Shown here one piece after another: positions 20,254-58,644 of a stretch of DNA of 64,000 bases; within the stretch, counting starts at the first letter, position 1, and each line of letters starts with the position of its first letter. The stretch is from assembly GCA_963662655.2 (NCBI GenBank), contig CAXXTU010000002.1, positions 32,001-96,000 of the forward strand. Direction: 5' to 3'. This DNA comes from Candidatus Cloacimonadales bacterium. GTDB taxonomy: Bacteria; Cloacimonadota; Cloacimonadia; Cloacimonadales; JAIOQZ01. Below the pieces are notes generated by a model. It ran no database searches. It saw only the letters and a list, made by a program, of their open reading frames with translations, and had not been told where the DNA came from. Both the position numbers and the translations under genes were made by a program.

Positions 20254-20391
20254 GTTTGCTCTGGGGCACCTTCGCCCGATCCGCTTTTCAACGTGGATAT
20301 ACCACACCCTTACAAATTGGGTGAAGTAATGAGGTAAGGGTGTGAAACACCACGCCGAAAAGCGGATCGAACGAATCTGCCTCCGGCGAAC
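20254..20391 (-). repeat. Long imperfect hairpin element, family B copy 1
   Basis: Inverted arms TTCGCCCGATCCGCTTTTCAACGTGG...CACACCCTTAC / GTAAGGGTGTG...CCACGCCGAAAAGCGGATCGAACGAA; aligns end to end with the reverse complement of 57995-58128. Confidence 0.85.
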
Positions 20392-29647: not shown

Positions 29648-30898
29648 ATGAAGAAATTTTTTGTCGCCCTCATGCTCATAAGCGCAGTCGCTATAATGTT
29701 TGCGCAGGAATACACGCTTGACCAACTGATCGAGAACGGCCTCGAACAGGTTACCGCTATTCGTCAGCAGAAGCTGAGTCACAGCAACAGCAAATCGAAT
29801 CTTACTTCGAGCGCTTTGGATTTGTTGCTCCCCGACGCGTCGGTATCGGCGGGTAGAAGCAACACTCGCGGAGATTACAGCAATAACGCTGGTTTGAGTA
29901 TATCGAAGTCTCTTTCGATCAACGAACCGACTTATTTCAGTTTGAAAGAATCGATTATCTCCATGAAGAATGCCGATTATTCATGGGACGCGATCCGCAA
30001 GAGCGTCGCGTACGAGATTTTCTCTCGATACATCGATGTGCTCGAGGCGGAGAAGAATCTGGAGATTCTCAAGGAACAGCACAAGCTCCAGGAGAAGGTC
30101 TACGACCAGACGAACACGCTTTATCAGAGCAATCGTAAAACCATGCTCGATCTCAGGCAGAGCGAGATTGCGCTTCTGAATGCCCAGATATCCGTTCGTG
30201 ACGGTGAAAACCAGCTGCAGAAGAATCGCGAGAATCTTTTCGATTACCTCAATATGGATGACCATGGGTTTAAACTGTCCGATACGACGGTCGAGGTGAG
30301 CTCTCCCGAGGACATCGAATACGATGATCCTCTCGACGTGCGCATCATGAAGAACAACATCAGCATCATGAAAAGCAATCTTACGCACCAGTGGCTCAAT
30401 TTCTTCCCTGATGTTTCTGCATCGTGGAGTTATAGTTATTCATTCAGTCCGGACGACGAGACCTATAACGATATATCGGATTGGGACGAGTACGATGATT
30501 CGTATACAATTGGTTTAACGGCGTCTTACTCGCTTTACAAGCTGCTCGAACATGGATTTGTATACAAGAGAGCCAGAAACAACCTGACTTCCAGCCAGCT
30601 TGATCTGGAAGATACCATTGATGCCGATAAGCTCGAGCTCAAGCAATTGAAGCAGGACTGGCAAACGCTTAATGAGACATGGGAAATTTCGCAACGAGCC
30701 AATCAGCTTGCTCAGGAAAATTTGACAATGGCAGAAGAGAAGTTCCGGCTGGGGATGCTTAACTTACTAGATCTGGATAACGCTCGTATCGATTATTTCA
30801 ACGCGCAGCAAACCTTGAACACCAAGCACTATAACCTGCTCAAGAAACAGGAGGAGATCAATTTGCTCCTCTCCCGTGAAATCCTCGGGAAGTGGTAG
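29648..30898 (+). CDS. TolC-family outer-membrane efflux channel
   Basis: Signal peptide; two repeated halves with P.vS.S beta strands and long helices (A.ENL.MAEEKFRLG....LDL..A). Confidence 0.85.
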   Translation: MKKFFVALMLISAVAIMFAQEYTLDQLIENGLEQVTAIRQQKLSHSNSKSNLTSSALDLLLPDASVSAGRSNTRGDYSNNAGLSISKSLSINEPTYFSLKESIISMKNADYSWDAIRKSVAYEIFSRYIDVLEAEKNLEILKEQHKLQEKVYDQTNTLYQSNRKTMLDLRQSEIALLNAQISVRDGENQLQKNRENLFDYLNMDDHGFKLSDTTVEVSSPEDIEYDDPLDVRIMKNNISIMKSNLTHQWLNFFPDVSASWSYSYSFSPDDETYNDISDWDEYDDSYTIGLTASYSLYKLLEHGFVYKRARNNLTSSQLDLEDTIDADKLELKQLKQDWQTLNETWEISQRANQLAQENLTMAEEKFRLGMLNLLDLDNARIDYFNAQQTLNTKHYNLLKKQEEINLLLSREILGKW

Positions 30899-30920
30899 TC
30901 GGATATTAGAACAACCTTTC

Positions 30921-30955
30921 GCCCCTGCTCGAAATGAGCGGGGGCTTTTTTTTTT
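30921..30955 (+). terminator. Intrinsic terminator after the TolC-family gene
   Basis: GCCCCTGCTC-GAAAT-GAGCGGGGGC followed by T10. Confidence 0.9.
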
Positions 30956-30991
30956 CGGGATGCGTTCGCTTGATGTGAGTTTGTTGCTTCC

Positions 30992-31158
30992 CGCAGGGCG
31001 GGGGACGGCGTTGAAATCCAATCGCCCGGCACAAAACCCGCGATGCATCGCTTGCAGCATTTCCCCGCGCGACTTGTGCCGGGCTGGATATGGATTTCCT
31101 GGAACAACGGATGTTGTTCCGGTGCGCGGAGCGCACAACGCCGTCCCCCGCCCGTGCG
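30992..31158 (+). repeat. Four-way-junction structured element, family A copy 1
   Basis: P1 GGGCGGGGGACGGCGTTG/CAACGCCGTCCCCCGCCC (18 bp); P2 AAATCCA..GCCCGGCACAA/TTGTGCCGGGC..TGGATTT; P3 CTGGAACAAC/GTTGTTCCGG; P4 TGCGC-GGA-GCGCA. Confidence 0.8.
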
Positions 31159-31269
31159 TGCGTCGAGCAAATTCCAGACTGTTTTCTAGAAAAAATCAAT
31201 TTTTCTTGTACTCATTTCATATTGATATGCGTTCATAAAAAACATTTTCCCAGTGGACATGGGTCTCCT

Positions 31270-31311
31270 AAAAATGAAACCCATCCTGAAGCTTCAAGAT
31301 GGGTTCTTTTT
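31270..31311. terminator. Probable (bidirectional) intrinsic terminator downstream of the TonB receptor-lipoprotein pair
   Basis: AACCCATC..TGAAGCTTCA..GATGGGTT flanked by an A-run and a T-run. Confidence 0.65.
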
Positions 31312-31326
31312 ATATCGTTGGGAAGA

Positions 31327-32256
31327 TTATTCGATGCTTTCCACAACCTTGGTGTAGAAAGTAAGGCCGCTGGCTGATCCGAAATAGCCGTAGCCGTTGT
31401 GGATGCCGCCGTATTCGAAGTTGCTGTCCGGTTTGTACTGGTAGTGATAGAAATTATCGTCCACGCTGTAAACGGATATCCGGTAGCGACCGAAGAACAC
31501 GAGGGTTCCCTGGTAGGATGAATTGAATACCCTGTATCCGCCTTCACCGTTTTCTTCAGGAAGGTACTCGCCGATAAAGCTGAGCAAGCGGGGATAGTGA
31601 TCCGCCGGATCGTCGTAATCCACTTCTTCTTCAAAGGTGTCTTCTCCGAATATCGGTTTTACCATGCGAACTTCGTCCCATTCCTCGAGGCAGTAGTACT
31701 TGAGGTACAGGAAAACCGGGTCGCCGTCGGTTGTGTTGATGATCATCGGATGCTCCTCGCCGGCGGTTTCCCACACGAGTTGGTAAGCGTCAACCGAGTC
31801 TTCGTACGCCGTGAAACAGGTGTCCATATCGATGGTCACGCCCTTTGGAATGGTTGTTGTGGCCCATACCGTGTCGATAACGGTCGAGTCCATCGCGCTC
31901 GGTACTCTCGCCTCGATACGATAGGTGTGCGTGGCCTGCGGTACGAGATTCTCGTTGTAGTAGCCGAAATGCAACGTTTCGAAGTCGATACCGAACTGAA
32001 GCGGGTACTCGTTTCCCTCGTCGTCGTAGATGACAACGTCGGCGTCTGTGACGAATGCTTCTTCGATATCGCCGCCCACAGGTATGGTTTTACCCACGTA
32101 GATCGAGTTATGGAACGAGAGCGGCTCGTTCTCGTACAGCGAACCGGCGATGATGTAGTAGAAATCCTTATCGTAACGCTTGGAGCTTGTAGGCCCCTCG
32201 CAGGACATGATAAGCAACGCGCTTGCGATTATGAGGATGATGTATGTGTATTTCAT
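31327..32256 (-). CDS. Lipoprotein partner of the TonB-dependent receptor (DUF4249-like)
   Basis: Lipobox LIMSC; V.DA.V.I, W A.TTIP, C-terminal I.NG.GYFGS; directly downstream of the receptor. Confidence 0.7.
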   Translation of the reverse strand: MKYTYIILIIASALLIMSCEGPTSSKRYDKDFYYIIAGSLYENEPLSFHNSIYVGKTIPVGGDIEEAFVTDADVVIYDDEGNEYPLQFGIDFETLHFGYYNENLVPQATHTYRIEARVPSAMDSTVIDTVWATTTIPKGVTIDMDTCFTAYEDSVDAYQLVWETAGEEHPMIINTTDGDPVFLYLKYYCLEEWDEVRMVKPIFGEDTFEEEVDYDDPADHYPRLLSFIGEYLPEENGEGGYRVFNSSYQGTLVFFGRYRISVYSVDDNFYHYQYKPDSNFEYGGIHNGYGYFGSASGLTFYTKVVESIE

Positions 32257-32266
32257 GATTCCTCCT

Positions 32267-34639
32267 TTACCATTCCACATTGATTCCGATAAACGGTATC
32301 CGTGGGAACTGATAGGTGTCCTCTGTTCTGTATCCGATTTCCGTGGTTTCAGAGAAGTCCTCCGGGTCCTGCTCTCCGAAGTATGGTACATAAGAACGTG
32401 AGTAAACGTTTTCGCGATTGAACACGTTAATCACCTGCACGTATGGTTCGACAGACATGCTTTTGGATTCCCAACGCATTTTCAGACTCAAGTCTATGCG
32501 CTGGTAGTCGGGGAGACGATCTCCGTCCTTATAGCTATAAAAGTACTGGAACGTATCCGTGTCCGGCTCGTAATAAACGTGCTCGGGCTTGGACGTTGGC
32601 TGCCCCGTTCCGAACGCATAGGTGGTTCCAAACAGAAGGTCTGCGCCCCAAAGCTTCTTGCCTGTTGCATTGAGCAGACTGAACGTCTCGACAATGTTGA
32701 TCTGGTGTGTTCTATCGTACTTGGGATAATAGTACTGCGGTTCGCCGGTTTCAGGATCCATGTTGGTGTCTTTGACTTTCTTCCGGGTGAAACCGAGCGT
32801 ATAGCCCACGAATCCTTCGACTCCCAGCCAGTTGTTTCTCACCAGGAGGTCGAGGCCGTAAGAAAATCCGTCGCCGGTGTTCAGCGCGTCCGAGAGCACG
32901 CCGGTGTCGTTGCTCCATTCGTAGTCGACTTCCGGCCTGTAGGCAACAAGGTTCTTGTAATCTTTGTAGTACGCTTCGACGTCGAGCCCCACTTCCTCGT
33001 TGATCTCCGTCTTGTAGCCGAGGATGTAATGATCCGAGCGCCCCGGTTCGATGGTGTCGTCGATCGGGAACCAGAGGTCCATCGGCGAGGCTTCTTCCGT
33101 AGAAACCAGGTTAAGATACTGGTGGTAGCGCCCATAGGAGAAGTAGACGTTGCTGGTCACGTCGAGCTCACGTCGAATGGAGAACCTGGGTGAGAGCCTG
33201 TAGTAGTCGACCGGTCCTCTGTCCTCTCCATAATTGCGCTCATTGTGGCACCAGGTGGCGCGCAGTCCGGGCTGAACCGTCCAGAACGTGTCCAGCTTCC
33301 AGGCGTCCTGAATGTACAGGTCGAGGAGAGAGGATGTCACGTCCACATGCGGCATGGAGTTTTCGTCGACATTCTGGTTCGTGCCCGTATCGAACAAGGT
33401 GTAAAGGTACTTGTAGTCGACACCCATATCGAACATGTGTGCTTCGTTCGGTTTCCACGACAACCCTTCGCGGATGGTGACGTCGTAAACGTCGTCGAGC
33501 CTGTCGAAGCTCTGCGAGTTTTTGCCGGCATCTACTTCGAACTTCATCTTCGAGTAGAAATGACTTCCCGCGACAATCATGTGCGAGAACCACTGTGGAC
33601 TGAAGATATGCGTCCACTGGTTGCTCCAGGTTTCGTTGCCCCACTCGATGTCCAGGTCGTACGAGAAGCCGAATTCGAGCTTGTCTTTACCGAAGTAGAA
33701 ACTCGAGCTGAATTTATCCCTCTCCGAGTGGTCCCAGTTGAGCTTGGCATGGCCATCGTAGAAGTAGTATTTCGGGATATCCAGCCCTATCAATTCTTCC
33801 ATCAGCTCCAGGTATGTTCTTCGGAAGGAGGCCATGTACGATCCCGATTCATCGTATATCCTCCACGGGCCCTCCAGCGTAAGGCTGGTGCTGATGAGGC
33901 TTATACGGGCAATACCGCAGTGTTCTTTGCGGTTACCGTCTTTGTTGGTAACATCCAGTACGGATGAAAGCCTTCCGCCATATTTTGCGGGGAATCCACC
34001 CTTGAGAAGCTGAACGTTCTTCACGGCGTCCGTGTTGAACGTACTGAAAACCCCCCCGAAGTGAGACGGGTTGTATACGTCGATTCCATCCAGCAGGATC
34101 AGATTCTGGTCGGCGCTACCGCCGCGAACGTACAGTCCGTTCGAAAAATCCGAAATCGGCGTCACACCCGGCAAGGCGAGTATGGAGCGGAAGACGTCCG
34201 CTTCCGCCACCGCGACGACTTCTTTGATATCTTTGTTGGTCTGCACGACATTCGCGATGCGGATATCGCGTGTGTTGATCTCGTCATCGATCTCTTTCTC
34301 TACGACTTTAATACCTTCAATTTGTACGGCGGCTTTCTCCATCTCGAGCTTCAGGAAGATTTCTTCTTTCGGGTTCTTCACGAGAACCATCTCCGAAGCG
34401 TACCGGTAACCGATTTGAGATGCGATGACTTCGATGTTCCCCGTCGGTACCGAGTTAATGATAAAGTATCCTTTTTTATTCGTATATTGACCAAGATTGG
34501 TGCCGCGGATGCTCACTGCGGCATAGATAAGTGGCTCGCCACTGCTTTTTTCAACTACATATCCACTGACTGTTGCAGCGTTCAGGCCTGCTGTTGCCAG
34601 TAGGAGCAGCATCAATAATATAGTGAATCTCTGCATCAT
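32267..34639 (-). CDS. TonB-dependent receptor with N-terminal carboxypeptidase-regulatory-like domain
   Basis: SGYVVEKSSGEPLIYA.V, LPGV, LYVRGGSADQNLILLDG, KGGFPAKYGGRLSSVLDV, NVFNREN, C-terminal aromatic residue. Confidence 0.92.
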   Translation of the reverse strand: MMQRFTILLMLLLLATAGLNAATVSGYVVEKSSGEPLIYAAVSIRGTNLGQYTNKKGYFIINSVPTGNIEVIASQIGYRYASEMVLVKNPKEEIFLKLEMEKAAVQIEGIKVVEKEIDDEINTRDIRIANVVQTNKDIKEVVAVAEADVFRSILALPGVTPISDFSNGLYVRGGSADQNLILLDGIDVYNPSHFGGVFSTFNTDAVKNVQLLKGGFPAKYGGRLSSVLDVTNKDGNRKEHCGIARISLISTSLTLEGPWRIYDESGSYMASFRRTYLELMEELIGLDIPKYYFYDGHAKLNWDHSERDKFSSSFYFGKDKLEFGFSYDLDIEWGNETWSNQWTHIFSPQWFSHMIVAGSHFYSKMKFEVDAGKNSQSFDRLDDVYDVTIREGLSWKPNEAHMFDMGVDYKYLYTLFDTGTNQNVDENSMPHVDVTSSLLDLYIQDAWKLDTFWTVQPGLRATWCHNERNYGEDRGPVDYYRLSPRFSIRRELDVTSNVYFSYGRYHQYLNLVSTEEASPMDLWFPIDDTIEPGRSDHYILGYKTEINEEVGLDVEAYYKDYKNLVAYRPEVDYEWSNDTGVLSDALNTGDGFSYGLDLLVRNNWLGVEGFVGYTLGFTRKKVKDTNMDPETGEPQYYYPKYDRTHQINIVETFSLLNATGKKLWGADLLFGTTYAFGTGQPTSKPEHVYYEPDTDTFQYFYSYKDGDRLPDYQRIDLSLKMRWESKSMSVEPYVQVINVFNRENVYSRSYVPYFGEQDPEDFSETTEIGYRTEDTYQFPRIPFIGINVEW

Positions 34640-34973
34640 TATTCCCCTTTTTGCGGATATTAAACACTTTATGGCTCCATTCATAGGGATTGTATTCGCT
34701 TGTCAAACATTTTTATTTTTCTGAAAACATTCGGGCCAAATGCGAATAGATGCATCGTTTTATTCACGATGTAAAATACTGCAATCAAGCAAATTATGTA
34801 GTAGTAATGCACGCTATTCATAAAAATGTGTCTCCAAAAAAAAATCAAAATGTGGAATGCATTCAGCGCCTTAAGTGAATTAAGCACTCGCTAAAGGATG
34901 CTTGAAATACATGCATCTGAATCGAAGAATTCAGGGTCAAAAACAGGGCAGTTTCAGTTGATTTGCTGGTATC

Positions 34974-36206
34974 TTATTTTTCGGGAAACAGAAAATTGGT
35001 GAAAGACTCGGCCCACACTTCAGGAGTAAAGGATTTCATGGCCGCTTCTTTCCCTGCTTTTCCAATATCCAGAAGGAGATCGCTGTGTTCGATTGCCCAT
35101 ATCATGCGCTTGGCGAGAGAGTCGATCGAGTCCGGTTCTGCAAGGATTACGCTCTTTTCGTCCTCCGTGTAGTCTTCAATGTCCGATATGCGGGTCATGA
35201 TGCAGGCAGTGCCGGAGAGAAGGTACTCCGCCAGCTTGGTAGAGAAATTGTAACGATTCTGGAGGCATGTTGTTTTTGCCGAGACCAGAAGATCGGAGCC
35301 AGCCATTCTGCGGGGAACTTCTTCGTTCTCGAGTAATCCATAGAGCGATACATTGTCGGCCACATTGAGATCGTTCAATATTCTCGCAAGGAATTCTTTC
35401 CTCTCATTGATTCCGAAGCCGTACATATCGAGCTGAGTTTCAGGATAGGCTTTTACGACCTTCGCAAAGGCTTTCAATAAAAGAAGTGAGCCTTCCTTTT
35501 CGGGAAAGAACCCACCGAAAAAGCCGATATGAAATTTATTGTCGTCGAAGGCGAATGTTGAGGGATTTGCTTTTTGTGGATCCGCGAGGATGGGGATTCT
35601 TATCAATGAAGCCGGGCTGTTCCTATATACATTGTAGAGGGCTTTCGAAATGGCTACAATGCCTGTGTAGCCTTTATCAAATCGATGATCGAGGCATAGT
35701 GATACAGGCAGATTGCTTACTATGAACAGAAACTTCGGATTTGTGAGACAGTTCCGTAGTGTTATCTGTGTTTTGACGATCTGCGAAAGCGATTCGTTCT
35801 TCTCAAGGTAAACACGCGTGCCCCGATTTTGGATTAGTTTACGAATGAATACTTTGTACCAGAGGCGATTTGTGTAATCGAAAACGACCGTTTCTCCATC
35901 GAGCCCACGGATGAAACCAGCAAGCCAGGACACATAGTCCTCTGCCGATTTCTTCCCAAACAGTGGGGAGTGCTTCTTCAAGCCGGTTCTTCGTCTGAAA
36001 TTTCCGATACGGAAGACATTTTCAGAACTTGAAACTGGGGTTACATGATCAAGATCAATCGGGCATACGATGGATGTAATATAAACGTTTACATTTTTCG
36101 ATGCCAAGGCGTGGGCGTAGCACATGGTACGCGCGAAAGCCGCTCCAAGCCCTTTGTTTATGTCGACATGCATTACGAATACGACGTTGCGGATTGGTAT
36201 TGTCAC
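34974..36206 (-). CDS. Glycosyltransferase, GT4 family
   Basis: G.F.PEKEG...LLKAF, SDLLV, FSTKLAEYL.SG. Confidence 0.85.
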   Translation of the reverse strand: MTIPIRNVVFVMHVDINKGLGAAFARTMCYAHALASKNVNVYITSIVCPIDLDHVTPVSSSENVFRIGNFRRRTGLKKHSPLFGKKSAEDYVSWLAGFIRGLDGETVVFDYTNRLWYKVFIRKLIQNRGTRVYLEKNESLSQIVKTQITLRNCLTNPKFLFIVSNLPVSLCLDHRFDKGYTGIVAISKALYNVYRNSPASLIRIPILADPQKANPSTFAFDDNKFHIGFFGGFFPEKEGSLLLLKAFAKVVKAYPETQLDMYGFGINERKEFLARILNDLNVADNVSLYGLLENEEVPRRMAGSDLLVSAKTTCLQNRYNFSTKLAEYLLSGTACIMTRISDIEDYTEDEKSVILAEPDSIDSLAKRMIWAIEHSDLLLDIGKAGKEAAMKSFTPEVWAESFTNFLFPEK

Positions 36207-36856
36207 GATAATGGTTTATCCTCTTCCGGTTTTGTGAGAGCAAAAAGGAATTGTGCCGGGTTTCCGCCCCAAACCTGATTGGCAGGGACTCTTCCCGAGA
36301 CGAGTGAGCAGGAGGCAATGATCGAGTTCTCTCCGATCCGCGTTCCTTTAAGGATGGTTGTGTGTGCCCCGATAAAGGCGTTGTCGCCGATTCGCACGGG
36401 CCTTCGTGCCGGTGGTACGGATCCTTGGATTCGATCCTCACGCCTGAGCGGATGGAAGTCTGTATCGTAAATCGCGCAGTTCGCGCCGATCATGACATTA
36501 TCGCCGATGGTAACCGATTTCTGGCAGATGATCGCTGAATGGCTGATTCCTACATTGCTGCCGATCTTCAACTCGGCATCCCGGCTGACGGTGAAAACGC
36601 AGGGAAGGGTTCTGCCGATAACATTGTTCGTGAAGCCGTTGTTTAACCGGAAATTCATACCCAATACGATAGTGCCACCCTGGTTGACGATTCGTGGAAT
36701 GCCGTTTGTAGAAAAACCTTTTCCGTACGAGACCATATTGATGCGAAAAAGCATTTTTGTGATTAGCGTCTCAAGAATACTCAGGTATTTCCGTTTTCGT
36801 CCCCTCAAGCGGTTCAGAACTTTGAAGTAAAGCGTTTGCTTCTTCGAAAGAGCCAC
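36203..36856 (-). CDS. Hexapeptide-repeat O-acyltransferase
   Basis: VTIGDNVMIGANC.IYDTDFH, PVRIGDNAFIG, IGENSII, WGGNPA. Confidence 0.88.
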   Translation of the reverse strand: MALSKKQTLYFKVLNRLRGRKRKYLSILETLITKMLFRINMVSYGKGFSTNGIPRIVNQGGTIVLGMNFRLNNGFTNNVIGRTLPCVFTVSRDAELKIGSNVGISHSAIICQKSVTIGDNVMIGANCAIYDTDFHPLRREDRIQGSVPPARRPVRIGDNAFIGAHTTILKGTRIGENSIIASCSLVSGRVPANQVWGGNPAQFLFALTKPEEDKPLS

Positions 36857-36881
36857 ATTTCCCTTCTTCCAGGTAGTCAGG

Positions 36882-37922
36882 TCAGATACTCAGATACCAA
36901 TTATAGACTTCACGAATTCCATCTTCGAGGCCGGTCTTTTCTTTCCAGCCGAGATTGTGGAGTTTGGTTACGTCGAGGAGTTTCTGAGGCGTACCGTCTG
37001 GTTTGGTTGAATCCCAGCGGATTTCACCCTCGAAACCGATGATGGCTCTAACTTTCTCCAGAAGTTCGCCGATTGTGAGGTCTCGTCCAGTCCCAACATT
37101 CACATGCTGATAATCGGAGTAGTTATTCAGCAGGTAGATGAGGGCGTCCGCGAGGTCGTCCGAGAAAAGGAATTCCCGGCGAGGAGTACCGGTTCCCCAG
37201 GCTTTGAGGAAAACGACGTCTCCGTCTCTTCCCACACCGATTTCAGAAAGTACTTTTTCCGCTTCTTCTTCTGAATTGATCTGCATTTCACCCATACGAT
37301 TCAGGTCGTGGTAAATGCCATCGTAATCTTTATTCATCAGGCATTTGGCCAGGTGGCACTTACGGATCAATGCAGGCAGGACGTGGGAATTCTTGAGATT
37401 GAAGTTGTCGCCAATACCGAAGAGATTGGTCGGCATTGCCGAAATGAAATCGGCATTGTACTGTCTTCGATAGAATTCGCACATTTTCAGACCGGCGATT
37501 TTGGCGATTGCGTAGGCTTCGTTGGTAGTTTCCAGCGAATCGGTGAGAAGGTATTCCTCTTTGATAGGCTGGGGACAGAGTTTGGGATATATGCAGGACG
37601 AACCAAGGAAGAGAAGTTTTTCTACTCCGTTCTTCCACGATGCATGAATCAGGTTTGACGCGATCATGATGTTGTCGTAGATGAATTCTGCGGGGTAGGT
37701 GCTGTTGGCAAGGATCCCGCCTACTTTTGCCGCCGCGATGATCACATGGTGCGGCTTATTCTCGGCGATGAATCGTTCCGCTTGTTCCTGAATGCGAAAA
37801 TCCCATTCAGGCCAGGCAGCGAACACGAGGTTATCGAATCCCTGCTTCTTCAGGTTTCTTACAAGAGCTGAGCCGACGAGACCCGAGTGCCCTGCGACGA
37901 ATATTTTATCGGTAGTCTTCAT
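36882..37922 (-). CDS. fcl: GDP-L-fucose synthase
   Basis: AGHSGLVGSA, AAAKVGGI.AN, FLGSSCIYPK, YAIAK, MPTNL.G..DNF, WGTG.PRREF, KPDGTP.K. Confidence 0.95.
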   Translation of the reverse strand: MKTTDKIFVAGHSGLVGSALVRNLKKQGFDNLVFAAWPEWDFRIQEQAERFIAENKPHHVIIAAAKVGGILANSTYPAEFIYDNIMIASNLIHASWKNGVEKLLFLGSSCIYPKLCPQPIKEEYLLTDSLETTNEAYAIAKIAGLKMCEFYRRQYNADFISAMPTNLFGIGDNFNLKNSHVLPALIRKCHLAKCLMNKDYDGIYHDLNRMGEMQINSEEEAEKVLSEIGVGRDGDVVFLKAWGTGTPRREFLFSDDLADALIYLLNNYSDYQHVNVGTGRDLTIGELLEKVRAIIGFEGEIRWDSTKPDGTPQKLLDVTKLHNLGWKEKTGLEDGIREVYNWYLSI

Positions 37923-37925
37923 GAT

Positions 37926-38987
37926 TTATCCTTCTTGTTTGCTGATGGTTTCGTAATCAGCTTTTACCATGATCTGGACAAGTTGCTCCAGTTTTGTTTC
38001 GGGTTCCCAGCCAAGTTCTTCACGCGCCTTGGTCGGATCACCGATGAGGATATCGACTTCCGTCGGACGGAAATAGCGAGGATCGACTTCGATGACACAT
38101 TTACCGGTTTGCGCGTCGTAGCCCTTCTCATCTACTCCCTCGCCTTCCCAGCGAAGTTTGATGCCGAGTTCGCCGAACGCCATTTCGCAGAATTCTCTCA
38201 CCGTGTTCGTCCTGCCGGTCGCGATCACATAATCCTCCGGCTTCGGTTGCTGGAGCATTCGCCACATGGCTTCAACGTATTCGGGGGCGTATCCCCAGTC
38301 GCGCTTGGAATCGAGGTTGCCGAGGTAAAGGCAGTCCTGCAGTCCCAGCTTGATTCGGACGACAGCCATCGTTATTTTACGGGTTACGAAGGTTTCGCCC
38401 CTGCGGGGGGATTCATGATTGAATAGGATGCCGTTGCATGCGTAAAGATTATACGCTTCCCGGTAGTTCTTAACGATCCAGTACGCGTACAACTTGGCCA
38501 CGGCATAAGGACTGCGGGGATAGAACGGCGTGGTCTCCTTCTGTGGAATTTCCTGGACTTTGCCATAAAGTTCGCTTGTGGAAGCCTGATAGAAACGCGT
38601 TTTGATCTCTGTCTCTTTAATTGCGTCGAGAAATCGTATAACGCCTACACCATCCACTTCCGCCGTGTATTCCGGGAGCTCAAACGACACCTTTACGTGG
38701 GATTGCGCGCCCAGGTTGTATATTTCGTTCGGCCTGATTTTGTCCAATAACCTGTTCAGGTTGCTTGAATCGGTAAGATCGCCATAATGCAGGTGCAGCC
38801 TGCGCGATTTCTCGTGAACATCCTGATAGAGGTGGTCGATGCGCTGTGTATTGAACGAGGAGGAACGTCGGATGATTCCGTGTACCTCGTAACCTTTATC
38901 CAGAAGCAGTTCGGCAAGATATGATCCATCCTGGCCGGTAATTCCGCTGATTAATGCTATAGGTGTGTTATTATTACTCACAATCAT
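37926..38987 (-). CDS. gmd: GDP-mannose 4,6-dehydratase
   Basis: [55 protein letters not shown]. Confidence 0.97.
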
Positions 38988-39140
38988 GTCCTTTCTTTCA
39001 ATAATCCTCAAACATCTTACACGCAACGCTGGAGTCAAGTATTTTCTACTTTGCTAAATTCCTGTTTTTATAACGAACTTCTCCTGCAATATTTCAATAC
39101 TAAAATGGAATCGGCTCAACTTCGTCGATTACCACCGTCC

Positions 39141-39320
39141 GCGCGGCGGGGCGGCGCGTAAGCCTTCTGCCAGTTATAAACGCAGGCAGAGCCATTCGCG
39201 GCGTGAGCCAACTCGATTGATTGCTCCATATCGGGTGAAGGCTTACGACAAGCCATGGCGCTGGCAATTCCAGCGCCATGGCTTGTTAATGCGCGAAGCG
39301 CATGCGCCGCCCCGCCGCGC
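39141..39320 (+). repeat. Four-way-junction structured element, family A copy 2
   Basis: P1 GCGCGGCGGGGCGGCGC/GCGCCGCCCCGCCGCGC (17 bp); P2 GTAAGCCTTC/GAAGGCTTAC; P3 ACAAGCCATGGCGCTGG/CCAGCGCCATGGCTTGT; P4 ATGCGC-GAA-GCGCAT. Confidence 0.8.
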
Positions 39321-39379
39321 TGGTGCGAGGTATCCCATGTGTTCGGCTGATGTGTTGGATGGGGCAACGAGCTTTTCAT

Positions 39380-39409
39380 TTGACATGAAAATGAAATGAA
39401 TAATACTAT
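39380..39409 (+). promoter_or_regulatory. Sigma70-type promoter
   Basis: TTGACA-18 nt-TACTAT upstream of a GGAG RBS and ATG 39432. Confidence 0.6.
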
Positions 39410-39431
39410 TGAAAAAAAGCGTGGAGAAAAA

Positions 39432-40196
39432 ATGTACTGTCGTCATTGCGGAAAAGAGATAGCGGATACGGATGCCACATGCCCGCACTGCAAGAGAGAT
39501 CAGTTTGAATACATACCCGTAGCGAGCATGAAGCGGGAATATGAAAAAGGCGAGTTACCGGATCGGTCCGAGCTTCCTCCGGATGATTTCGACCTCAAGG
39601 TTGTCGAGCCGGAGCCGGTGAAGCAGAAGGAATGGATCCCAACCCAACCGAAGCGCGAGAGATGGCGAATGCCCTCCCTGAGGCGTATCATGATGAACCT
39701 CGTTATTGCGCTATTGGCTGTCGTTGGTATCGTTGGTATCTTTTTGCCGTTTTACGAACTGGATGCCGTTATGTCACCCGGTGAAATATCGCTGTCTGAC
39801 CTGATTCAAAGCGGTATTGCCTATTACAAAGATCAGCCGGTGGATTCGATCAGCATCATCGAGTCGTTCAAACAACTGGTAAACCTCTATGCTGGAAACA
39901 CGAAAGCGTGGTATATCGGGGGTATATTCCTGGCTCTGATTCCAGCGTTTCTGGGCCTGACGATGGTGGGAACTTTCCTGAGTGCGCTTCGCTTTCAATA
40001 CAAGCGTCAGACGGGTTTGCGTTGCCTGATTATCCACTCGTTGATCGCCGGCGCATTATTTTACTTCGGCGGACGGGAGATGGGTGTATGGCTCAATTTC
40101 TTCGCGAACGCAGGCGCAGGCTACTGGCTGATTTTCTCATCGCTGATCGCGATAAGCGTTCTCCAGATATTCGACTACCCCGAAGAACGGCGATGA
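39432..40196 (+). CDS. Zinc-ribbon-domain membrane protein
   Basis: MYCRHCG......CPHC followed by about four transmembrane helices. Confidence 0.75.
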   Translation: MYCRHCGKEIADTDATCPHCKRDQFEYIPVASMKREYEKGELPDRSELPPDDFDLKVVEPEPVKQKEWIPTQPKRERWRMPSLRRIMMNLVIALLAVVGIVGIFLPFYELDAVMSPGEISLSDLIQSGIAYYKDQPVDSISIIESFKQLVNLYAGNTKAWYIGGIFLALIPAFLGLTMVGTFLSALRFQYKRQTGLRCLIIHSLIAGALFYFGGREMGVWLNFFANAGAGYWLIFSSLIAISVLQIFDYPEERR

Positions 40197-42211
40197 AATT
40201 CAAGCTCCTTGTCCTCTTCGTATTTCTCTTTACGACTCTCGTGGCGGCACAGTACGACCACTATGCCAAGTCCCCTTACAAGGAAGGCGTTCCCCGCGAT
40301 TTTGTCCGGGATGGTATCCGGCTTTCCGACAACCAGTTGTCCGAGTTCAATGTCTTTCACGTCATGATGTTTCTGGAATCTGAGCTGGCAACTCCCGATG
40401 AGACCGCGGCGGCATATCGTCTGATCGGTGATATGATCAAGCGGGTGAAAAAATCCACCACGCCCGAAATGAGTGTGGAATCGAAGCTGGCGGTCGTGTA
40501 CGATATCGTATCCTCGCAACTCGGTTTCGCGTACGAAGGCGGTGTGAATTCCCTTTGCTCAGGCATGGGCAAGCATGTCCTCGATTGCGATATCGGCGGG
40601 TACCTTTTTATCGCTGTCGGGATGGAGATGGACTGGCCGCTCTATGCCGTGGAGGCTCCGCAACATCTCTTTGTTCGCTGGGACGATGGCCGGACGATCC
40701 TGAATTTCGAGACAACCTCCGGGACGGTCAGTTCCAACATTGCCTACATGAAAGAGATGAATCTCGATATGAAGCATCTGAAATCGGGATTGTACCTGCA
40801 CAACCTCAAGTGGGAAGAACTGGTTTCCAATTTCTATTTGAACATGGCTTCCGAATTGATGACTGTGGACAACTATCCACGAGCGCGCGTGCTTCTGGAT
40901 AGGGCAATCGAGTTGAATCCGGGGGATCCCGATGGGTATGTGAATCGGAGTAACGCCCTCAATGCGCTCGGAGAATACCGGCTGGCAATCGAGGATTGCA
41001 ACCGCGCCCTCAAAATCAATCCTGACGAAGTCAGCGCCTACATCAATCGAGGGACGGCAAAGGATCAGCTAGGGGACCATGCCGGCGCGCTGGACGATGC
41101 ACGTATTGCGCTGAAGCTCGAACCGGACAACCCCAAAATCTGGTTCAACCTCGGTCTCTTTCACAAGAACTCGGGAGATATGAGAAGAGCGCTCGAAGAT
41201 TACACGAGATCGATCGAATTGAACAACCGGTACGAGAAAGCCTATATCAACCGAGGTTTTGTTTTCCTCGATCGGGAGGAGTTCCGCCAGGCGGAGAACG
41301 ATTTTCTTGCCGCGATCGAGCTGGTTCCCGAAGATTCCGCGCCCTATTCCTATCTTGGCTCGCTATACTTCAAGCAGGAGAAGTACGCAGAAGCGCTGGC
41401 ATATTTCAGCAGGGCGATCGAGCTGGAACCGGACAATCTCACAACCCGGTACAATCGCGCTGTCGTATACTCACGTATGAACGATTTGACGAACGCCCTG
41501 GCGGATTACACGATTGTGTTGAACAGCGATCGTGAAAACGGCAGCGCTTTCCTGAATCGCGGATTGATATACAGCCAGCTTGGTGACGAGCTGTCGGCAA
41601 TTAGCGATTACAACGCCGCCCTTGCCCTGAATCCGGAGAACGTCGGCGATATTTACCTGAATCGCGGGATTTCATATCAGACGATCGGGCGGATGCGTGA
41701 GGCGATTGAGGATTATACCCGGGCGATTCGATACGACTCCACTAACGCGGACATTTTCTACAACCGGGGGAACGCGAAGTACGATGTCGGAGATATCGAT
41801 GGAGCCCTGAGCGATTACTCAACGGCGATTGACATCGGATTCTCCGAGGCAAGTGTGTACTACAACCGAGCGATCGTGTACCGGAAGAAGGGCGATTTCC
41901 GCAAGGCGATTCACGACGCGGACTGGTCGATCAAGATGAACCCCCAATACGGCGACGCATGGCTACTGCTTTCCATGCTTAAAATGGAAATCGAAGACTT
42001 CGATGGTGCGCTGGAGAGCGTGAACCGTGCGATTGTTCTGCAACCGGATAATCCATCCTCGTTTGTAAACCGCGCGAACATCCAGTACCGCATGAAGAAT
42101 TACAAAAGCGCGTTGAAAGATATAAACCGTGCCCTTACGCTCAATCCCTCCCTCTTAAACGACTACCGGGAGTTCCAGCAGCATCTGATCAACCTTGTTG
42201 AACGTCCATGA
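40193..42211 (+). CDS. Exported TPR protein with transglutaminase-like (SirB1-type) N-terminal domain
   Basis: Signal peptide MKFKLLVL; LDC.....F.AV.....PLYAVEAPQHLFVRW...NFETT; about thirteen TPR units. Confidence 0.8.
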   Translation: MKFKLLVLFVFLFTTLVAAQYDHYAKSPYKEGVPRDFVRDGIRLSDNQLSEFNVFHVMMFLESELATPDETAAAYRLIGDMIKRVKKSTTPEMSVESKLAVVYDIVSSQLGFAYEGGVNSLCSGMGKHVLDCDIGGYLFIAVGMEMDWPLYAVEAPQHLFVRWDDGRTILNFETTSGTVSSNIAYMKEMNLDMKHLKSGLYLHNLKWEELVSNFYLNMASELMTVDNYPRARVLLDRAIELNPGDPDGYVNRSNALNALGEYRLAIEDCNRALKINPDEVSAYINRGTAKDQLGDHAGALDDARIALKLEPDNPKIWFNLGLFHKNSGDMRRALEDYTRSIELNNRYEKAYINRGFVFLDREEFRQAENDFLAAIELVPEDSAPYSYLGSLYFKQEKYAEALAYFSRAIELEPDNLTTRYNRAVVYSRMNDLTNALADYTIVLNSDRENGSAFLNRGLIYSQLGDELSAISDYNAALALNPENVGDIYLNRGISYQTIGRMREAIEDYTRAIRYDSTNADIFYNRGNAKYDVGDIDGALSDYSTAIDIGFSEASVYYNRAIVYRKKGDFRKAIHDADWSIKMNPQYGDAWLLLSMLKMEIEDFDGALESVNRAIVLQPDNPSSFVNRANIQYRMKNYKSALKDINRALTLNPSLLNDYREFQQHLINLVERP

Positions 42212-46130: not shown

Positions 46131-46207
46131 TGGGGTGGCTGATGGGACTTGAACCCACGACCACAGGAGCCACAATCCTGTGCTCTGCCAGCTGAGCTAC
46201 AGCCACC
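46131..46207 (-). tRNA. tRNA-His (GTG) with encoded G-1 and CCA
   Basis: GGTGGCTGTAGCTCAGCTGGCAGAGCACAGGATTGTGGCTCCTGTGGTCGTGGGTTCAAGTCCCATCAGCCACCCCA. Confidence 0.97.
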
Positions 46208-57972: not shown

Positions 57973-57994
57973 ATGCGCCGATCGCGAGGAAAAG

Positions 57995-58128
57995 ACCGCG
58001 AGGTGTGAGTAGATTTGTTCGAAATGCTTTCCAGCGTGGTGTTACACATCCTTTTTCAAGGCTCGATAGTCAGGAGGATGTGTTATATCCACGCTGGAAA
58101 GCATTTCGGGCGAAGATGCCACACCGGT
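57995..58128 (+). repeat. Long imperfect hairpin element, family B copy 2
   Basis: TTGTTCGAAATGCTTTCCAGCGTGG..ACACATCCT / AGGATGTGT..CCACGCTGGAAAGCATTTCGGGCGA. Confidence 0.85.
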
Positions 58129-58374
58129 AAGCAAACATGAAAAGCATCCGATGAGCATTCCTTCTGGCAGCCGGTGCACCTTCGCTCCATCCGCCGCTTC
58201 ACCCTATAACAACACACCTTCGTCACATTTTTCTCAATTTCAATTGAGAAAAATGTGACTTCGGAGTGTATATAATAGGGTTACGCGGGGATGAAACGAA
58301 TCTGCTACCGGCGGGTGTGATGATTTTGGGAAGTATCGCTTGACGTGAAAGCGGGTGTATAAAAAAGTGCGAAA

Positions 58375-58551
58375 GATTACGGTTCGTCTTAGCGACGCCA
58401 AGATGGAATCCCCGTGAAATTCGGGAGCAGCCCCCGCTCCTGTGAGAAGTAACGAAAGCTCTACGAATGTCACTGACCGAAGGTTGGGAAGGCAGAGCGA
58501 GTAGGCAACCCGAGAGGGTGAAAGCTTCGAGCCAGGAAACATGCCGCAATC
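58375..58551 (+). promoter_or_regulatory. Cobalamin riboswitch
   Basis: GGAATCCCCGTGAAATTCGGGAGCAGCCCCCGCTCCTGTGA, GTCACTG...GGGAAGGC, B12 box GAGCCAGGAAACATGCC; downstream RBS-sequestering hairpin CCTCCTC-ATT-GAGGAGG (58624-58640). Confidence 0.93.
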
Positions 58552-58644
58552 AATATCCAATCACTTTCGGAGGGAGAGCAAGGTTGGAAAATGCACGCGT
58601 ATTGTGGCATTTCCCTTACGAACCCTCCTCATTGAGGAGGAAAG

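Follow-up and report, generated by a model that had tools for sequence, protein, structure and literature searches.

A dispersed intergenic repeat family with a predicted four-way-junction fold in a Cloacimonadales genome

Our analysis places the 180-nt element at positions 39141 to 39320 of the window (the whole stretch of 64,000 nt of Candidatus Cloacimonadales DNA that was analyzed) in a dispersed family of folded repeats. The original prediction was built on two copies; the genome that holds the window (G000; 3.81 Mb in two contigs) carries 76 full copies along with two truncated ones, both of them 3' halves. Most probably, the family is a non-autonomous repeat that operates at the DNA level, of the same kind as REP, bcr1, and MITE sequences, although it lacks some of the features that define membership in REP/REPIN and bcr1, and its mobilizer would be of the HUH type. 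The class of enzyme is the weakest step in this reading. Support comes from the number of copies, their dispersal among intergenic regions, their fixed geometry, and the presence or absence of the element at an orthologous gap. It comes in addition from copies up to 90-91% identical at unrelated loci, the lack of target duplication, a mini-hairpin typical of DNA, and compensated changes in the arms. Against the reading stand the failure to find a mobilizer, the lack of lagging-strand bias, the missing REP tag, and the lack of a clean empty site.

Importance

Small structured repeats without a known enzyme, among them the CGTC-type REPs, bcr1, and BOX, pose a long-standing question. With 76 copies, the family described here separates positions that are held by sequence (the junction-proximal part of stem P1, stem P4, and the base of stem P2) from those held by length and pairing (stem P3 and the P2 insert) and from those that are free, and it is a sharp bait for a mobilizing or binding protein. 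It can also be used to ask whether selection or copying between arms is the source of covariation in bacterial repeats, which bears on the covariation-based pipelines that search for structured RNAs. A recombinase that reads shape, if there is one, would be useful in biotechnology because it tolerates arbitrary arm sequence; without an enzyme, the family is one more lineage-specific repeat.

Results

The element at 39141-39320 folds around a four-way junction, and the coordinates and pairings originally given for P1, P2, P3, P4, and the single junction base all proved exact. On the plus strand, the conserved, G-rich 5' arm of P1 (39141-39157) forms 17 perfect base pairs with its C-rich 3' arm (39304-39320). 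The 5' arm of P2 (39158-39167), whose base is conserved in the family and includes one invariant A-T pair, forms 10 pairs with the 3' arm (39237-39246). Between them lies the insert of the long size class (39168-39236), in which the second stem present in 27 of 40 long copies is degenerate; the hairpins proposed inside P2 of this copy are weak, and RNA and DNA folds disagree there. P3 (39247-39287) is a hairpin of variable sequence with 17 perfect pairs and a G.T closing pair, A39288 is unpaired in the RNA fold, and the 6-bp P4 (39289-39303) has a GAA loop and includes the GCGNAGC mini-hairpin described for DNA in PMC13037366. The 5' tail (39131-39140), which follows a degenerate, C-rich family consensus and may belong to element or target, does not pair with the 3' tail (39321-39345), which is about 24 nt long, starts with TG, and likewise follows a degenerate consensus.

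Comparison with shuffled DNA, a check that had been proposed at the outset, bears out the predicted structure. The z score is -10.67 with RNA and -10.83 with DNA parameters, and none of 200 shuffles matches the element. The minus strand folds at -75.3 kcal/mol, versus -75.8 kcal/mol for the plus strand, with a reverse-strand z of -9.96. The other copy in the window (30996-31153, plus strand) has the same architecture (z = -10.89) and lies between convergent genes. Over window positions 30400 to 40400, a public contig is identical throughout, and no excised form was found in contigs aligned to the window, a type of sequence that drops rare variants.

To the left of the element lies gmd, encoding GDP-mannose 4,6-dehydratase (37926-39038, minus strand; TIGR01472 above cut-off), with a true start probably near 38988. 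To the right is an orphan protein gene (39396-40196, plus strand) with an N-terminal zinc ribbon (PF13240 just below cut-off). A sigma-70-like promoter match at 39380-39409 on the plus strand is directed away from the element, which therefore lies upstream of the promoter. No terminator-like site was found, and 17 of 71 family copies occupy divergent gaps, in agreement with the earlier view that the element is not a terminator. Elsewhere, the window contains a tRNA-His gene (46134-46206) and a cobalamin riboswitch (58363-58562).

Across the family, elements measure 105 to 203 bp and fall into two size classes. The span of P2 is 18 to 33 nt in the 32 short copies and 62 to 99 nt (mostly 80 to 99, with the bulk at 85 to 92) in the 40 long ones. 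P1 is G+C-rich and 11 to 29 bp long (mean, 16), while P4 has 6 bp, covaries at two positions, and carries a GNA loop closed by C-G in 55 of 72 copies and other loops in 17. The idea that P1 and P4 form the conserved motif is borne out across the family. P3 spans 41 to 49 nt in most copies (about 20 bp), with a median pairwise identity of 45%. P2 and P3 had both been described as entirely different between copies; P2, however, is not wholly replaced, since its base is conserved family-wide. Because P3 lineages are common to the short and long classes, the arms appear to be inherited. Beyond P1, the tails are polar and degenerate (about 10 nt on the 5' side and 24 nt on the 3' side), and their pairing with each other is no better than in controls. 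In 26 close copy pairs the tails are little more alike than in 888 distant pairs, and the difference is confined to the 12 nt of the 3' tail nearest to P1 (p = 0.014), so that the tails may be either ends of the element that evolve fast or the trace of a preferred target.

Two covariance models return the same set of copies in G000, of which 72 have a 3-nt P4 loop and were parsed and 4 have a 4-nt loop; the exact P4 motif occurs 44 times in this genome. When contig C2 was scanned for the architecture without any motif, 54 junctions emerged, every one a family member, and the same scan returned none from intergenic DNA (377 kb) that had been shuffled 10 times. All 71 copies checked are intergenic, with no overlap of a called gene, the gene calls behind these placement counts being crude ones made in this analysis. 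Convergent gaps hold 23 copies, divergent gaps 17, and co-directional gaps 31, and the convergent class is enriched over the 12.6% expected from gap length (p = 1e-5). There was no link between the orientation of copies and that of flanking genes (35 of 71 are sense to the upstream and 29 of 71 to the downstream gene) and no bias in replication direction within C2 (35 leading versus 34 lagging, with origin and terminus inferred from GC skew). Copies occur singly and never in clusters.

A pair of copies that are 97% identical is a segmental duplication beside an ISL3 element. Two leads from these loci were rejected: a common C-terminal domain in neighboring proteins did not stand out (21 of 72 versus 233 of 1,085 gaps; p = 0.14), and the location of a copy just behind a tyrosine recombinase gene, seen for one of six such genes, was judged a chance event. 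The two best-scoring tyrosine recombinase genes (G000 C2:1848001-1848712 and C2:1153549-1154146) each adjoin a repeat, the four-way element at one and a member of a second repeat family at the other. At two sites (G000 C2:2159230 and C2:2629375), one of the 13 ISL3 copies has inserted about 25 bp or less from an element, on its 5' side, and a third case duplicates one of these. One truncated copy (G000 C2:1165270-1165430) and the single copies of two congeners, G001 (L052) and G003 (L075:1340-1720), each sit inside another inverted repeat that is unrelated to the family, which gives the impression of new arms arising around the element.

In a search of 232 genomes of the class, the junction pattern matched 64 times in G000 and once each in G001, G002, G003, and G006, and covariance models agree with this distribution. 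The match in G006 is not an element. Horizontal transfer to G002 was also rejected: its copy, 91% identical to one in G000, sits on a misbinned contig (C10, 37.8 kb; L171, L172) whose tetranucleotide use is nearer to that of G000 and which shows near-identity and like depth in the sequencing runs of the window. C10 holds housekeeping genes that are absent from G000, which we take to be hisS-, pyrE-, and kdsA-like genes together with flagellar ones. It appears to be DNA of the G000 species filed with G002, so that the G002 copy is not independent and the G000 assembly lacks at least 38 kb. In the 231 other genomes of the class, own copies were found only in the congeners G001 and G003, one in each.

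The copies of G001 and G003 occupy an orthologous divergent gap between queD and a zinc-ribbon gene, where they lie between back-to-back -35 boxes; P2 and P3 differ between them, and the structure is kept. At this gap the element is absent from G000 and from G002, whose genome is 90% complete and has no copy of its own. Identity to G003 is 83-86% for G002 and 76-77% for G001, and the search for a clean empty site that would define the point of insertion was negative, the queD gap being too diverged. A motif-free scan for an analogous family with another motif gave none in G001 or G003 (400 kb scanned in each), versus seven in 400 kb of G000, and as a control it recovered both known congener copies. 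Pattern matches in viral contigs and in one metagenome contig are not elements, and plasmid and phage collections yielded none. Most copies are far more diverged than those of ISL3 (99.5% identical), so either the family expanded earlier than ISL3 or its members mutate rapidly.

Our results also confirm that shape is kept while the sequence of the arms turns over. Two-sided changes occur at 26 of 39 pairs, more than in either control and a level reached by none of 500 shuffles, and a second count gives 30 of 37 pairs, although related sequences inflate such a covariation score. Related copies were compared in 10 non-overlapping pairs; over 359 Watson-Crick pairs, there were 21 compensated double changes versus 1.6 expected under independence and 32 single changes versus 73 expected. 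Eight of the 21 are transversions, which are impossible via wobble. Furthermore, the loop of P4 is reversed (TNC) in five copies and the one-step intermediate occurs in one, which indicates copying from arm to arm. Flipping of the hairpin loop is among the effects of template switching. Such switching between arms turns imperfect inverted repeats into perfect ones, as reported in PMC5941160. Selection had been put forward as the sole cause of the paired changes; because arm-to-arm copying accounts for them without selection, covariation in this family is not proof of it. Fixed lengths and conserved junction bases are a better argument for recognition than covariation. Recognition by a protein is plausible, and no recognizing protein was identified.

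Searches for a mobilizer were negative for Y1, Y2, IS110 (PF02371), TnpB, and serine recombinase/resolvase genes in G000, in an assembly short of at least 38 kb. They also returned no gene-bearing copy or orphan end outside the family in this incomplete assembly, which holds only the two truncated 3' halves. In five relatives, 17 Y1 loci are flanked by other repeats and not by this element. Several RAYT-like Y1 genes of relatives have REP arrays of their own (L080, L081, L086, L087, L089, L091), and in G001 and G003 one RAYT-like Y1 gene follows a DinB-like gene. Three resident candidates were set aside. The only reverse transcriptase of G000 (C2:981050-982610, L138) is broken by one TGA and is unlinked to the family; the sole PF05635 gene (Avd-like, four-helix-bundle) belongs to a Mu-like prophage and has unrelated flanks; and the 13 ISL3 copies have ends unlike P1 and are unlinked. 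The PF05635 gene (G000 C2:2729859-2730224, L116) is flanked by short stuttered inverted repeats.

Discussion

The family shares features with several known repeat types. As described in PMC6006769 and PMC3733652, the REP, REPIN, and BIME sequences associated with RAYT are likewise species-restricted, intergenic, multicopy, G+C-rich, and palindromic. Enrichment in convergent gaps (PMC3733652), lack of target duplication, and polar unpaired tails are further likenesses to REPs. Yet the elements described here differ from those accounts in their length of 105 to 203 bp, in having three internal hairpins on one junction, and in that the arms of half the element are free in sequence. Unlike REPs, moreover, they carry no GTAG or GTGG tag in any of 72 copies on either strand (CGTC occurs in 3 of 72 and 2 of 72), never cluster, and share the assembled genome with no Y1 transposase. 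REPs of the CGTC type also occur without a dedicated transposase, and some REP dimers enclose small hairpins (PMC6006769, PMC3733652). IS200/IS605 elements are biased to the lagging strand (PMC6006769), in contrast to the family (35 versus 34).

Another parallel is bcr1 of the Bacillus cereus group, which PMC3184786 presents as a dispersed repeat of about 155 bp with a cruciform-like fold, compensatory changes, non-conserved positions, and no known enzyme of its own. As portrayed there, bcr1 is transcribed, forms two stem-loops, and lies between direct repeats of 5 bp, whereas the family has no such repeats, three stem-loops, and much lower identity between copies (median for P3, 45%). Bacterial MITEs (Correia/NEMIS, Nezha, and RUP; PMC3184786) are also short and gene-less, with a terminal inverted repeat and a stable fold; the family departs from them in lacking target duplication, in that no insertion sequence with matching ends was found in the incomplete assembly, and in its polar inner architecture. 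Integron attC sites and the DUF1874 motif, a multistem candidate, resemble the family in keeping structure while sequence is free and in a known or proposed role for folded single-stranded DNA, as outlined in PMC5737381. Unlike attC sites, copies of the family are dispersed among all four gene orientations, do not fill consecutive cassette gaps, and match no Rfam model. The exact d(GCGNAGC) motif of the phage G4 origin, ssiA, and N4 promoters (PMC13037366) is present in 55 of 72 P4 hairpins, although in this family the hairpin forms a single arm within a dispersed repeat and the loop is a different one in 17 of 72 copies. The family differs from IS110 and bridge-RNA elements in lacking a PF02371 recombinase and in that its loops are not complementary to a target: guide-like complementarity of loops to flanks or genome did not exceed chance, and P2 and P3 fit their own flanks no better than those of other copies. 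Full-text searches of the openly available literature, main texts only, turned up no account of such a family.

We favor gene-less mobile DNA that would be seen by a trans-acting enzyme as a folded four-way junction, either single-stranded or extruded. The working form would be DNA and not RNA. The surface that is recognized may consist of P1, P4, and the base of P2; for P3 and the P2 insert, length and pairing would suffice. Mutations in one arm could be copied to its partner by template switching or hairpin repair, giving rise to double changes and flipped loops. The mobilizer would most likely be a single-strand transposase of the HUH type, either no longer present or encoded in sequence missing from the assembly. 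It is also possible, though we hold it to be rather doubtful, that the family represents an undescribed class of mobile DNA. In that case, an enzyme of an unknown family would read the junction shape and the GNA mini-hairpin on single-stranded DNA, insertion would be duplication-free at a degenerate polar target, and the arms would rewrite themselves.

An argument can be made for a structured RNA repeat, and of the alternatives it survives best, even though we find it unlikely. Such a repeat would be produced mainly from the strand without GNA, would influence the stability of mRNAs or termination from within 3' untranslated regions in the manner of bcr1 or BOX, and would spread by an RNA-dependent or RNA-independent route. 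Among 3,686 arm columns, taken from local alignments that favor matches, 3,520 (95.5%) are Watson-Crick and 62 are G.T or A.C, with 19 G.T versus 43 A.C as read on the GNA strand. In the two copies first compared, the wobbles had been noted on the same strand as the GNA loop; over the family, G.T favors the opposite strand, in 24 copies versus 7 (72 copies; p = 0.003) and in 20 lineages versus 5 of 51. Isolated mismatches without G on the drawn strand outnumber the mirror classes by 63 to 31, which puts G-containing mismatches on the minus strand. With RNA parameters, 48 of 72 copies fold slightly better as the minus strand, a minus-strand gene precedes 42 of 71 copies, and the enrichment in convergent gaps is consistent with the same interpretation, as is the transcribed, cruciform-like bcr1 (PMC3184786). 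Nevertheless, the mismatch bias is the same in divergent gaps (2 versus 7), where promoters aim away: in 17 such gaps, matches to a loose promoter pattern point outward in 27 of 34 flanks and inward in 9, which argues against a general role inside transcripts. Wobbles are rare overall, and Rfam 15 gave no family match at gathering score in a scan of the window and of 10 short-class copies. The GNA triloop, a DNA-stabilizing motif, lies on the other strand; the GCGNAGC mini-hairpin is exceptionally stable as DNA and related RNA hairpins are much less so, according to PMC13037366. The mismatch bias fits RNA from the opposite strand, selection on that DNA strand, or damage to cytosines on an exposed strand, and cytosine damage on a single-stranded minus strand would yield an equal bias.

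An improbable alternative is a classical MITE, in which a resident DDE transposase would act on double-stranded DNA with P1 as the terminal inverted repeat, and template switching would have produced the inner hairpins as a by-product. The perfect terminal inverted repeat of 11 to 29 bp and the active insertion sequence families of the genome, the 13 ISL3 copies among them, are what such an origin would entail. However, direct repeats at the ends showed no excess, as the longest word shared by a copy's own flanks equaled that shared with the flanks of other copies at 15, 30, and 45 nt, in a test that a G+C duplication of 2 to 4 nt inside the palindrome end would escape. A short duplication might be concealed in this way as the outer GC/GCGC. 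The ends of ISL3 are unlike P1, and the polar tails, the polar order of P2, P3, and P4, and the tight arm lengths would be superfluous for a DDE enzyme.

Less probable still is a chromosomal site selected by the host, as a target of a nucleoid, gyrase, primase, or junction-binding protein, and retained for host benefit after its amplification in this lineage. The single copy at the orthologous queD gap of G001 and G003, whose structure persists although its arms have been replaced, favors this explanation; retention of one copy by two species that are about 77% identical could reflect function rather than selfish persistence. In addition, GCGNAGC-type motifs are found at priming or promoter sites of phages and plasmids (PMC13037366). 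On the other hand, the element is missing from that gap in G002 and G000, G002 has no copy of its own anywhere in a 90% complete genome, the copy number is 76 as against one in the congeners, and there is no link with replication direction. Last, we regard as very improbable a retro-element whose minus-strand RNA would be reverse-transcribed, possibly with DGR-like adenine mutagenesis, into cDNA bearing the GNA hairpin: the strands do differ in signal (wobbles on one, the DNA mini-hairpin on the other), copies diverge fast, and conserved stems are G+C-rich, but adenine-specific mutagenesis, hinted at by T in 35 of 47 unpaired differences, finds no support in the mismatch classes (A.G 7 versus C.T 19), and neither the stop-interrupted reverse transcriptase nor the prophage PF05635 gene is connected with the family.

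The same genome contains another repeat family, which is larger. Its members are long hairpins of about 130 bp in which the outer and inner segments and two T.G pairs are conserved and the middle varies yet stays paired. In the window it is represented at 20265-20380 (minus strand) and 57994-58129 (plus strand). G000 holds 122 to 125 loci, none overlapping a called gene, and each congener has 6 to 12 copies of its own. This second family is strongly oriented, with 88 of 117 copies on the lagging strand and, for 94 of 122, a preceding gene that is read from the opposite strand, and the one copy compared with Rfam gave no match. Two branched variants of it (G000 C2:3147222-3147361 and 3150728-3150867) lie 3.5 kb apart around two genes.
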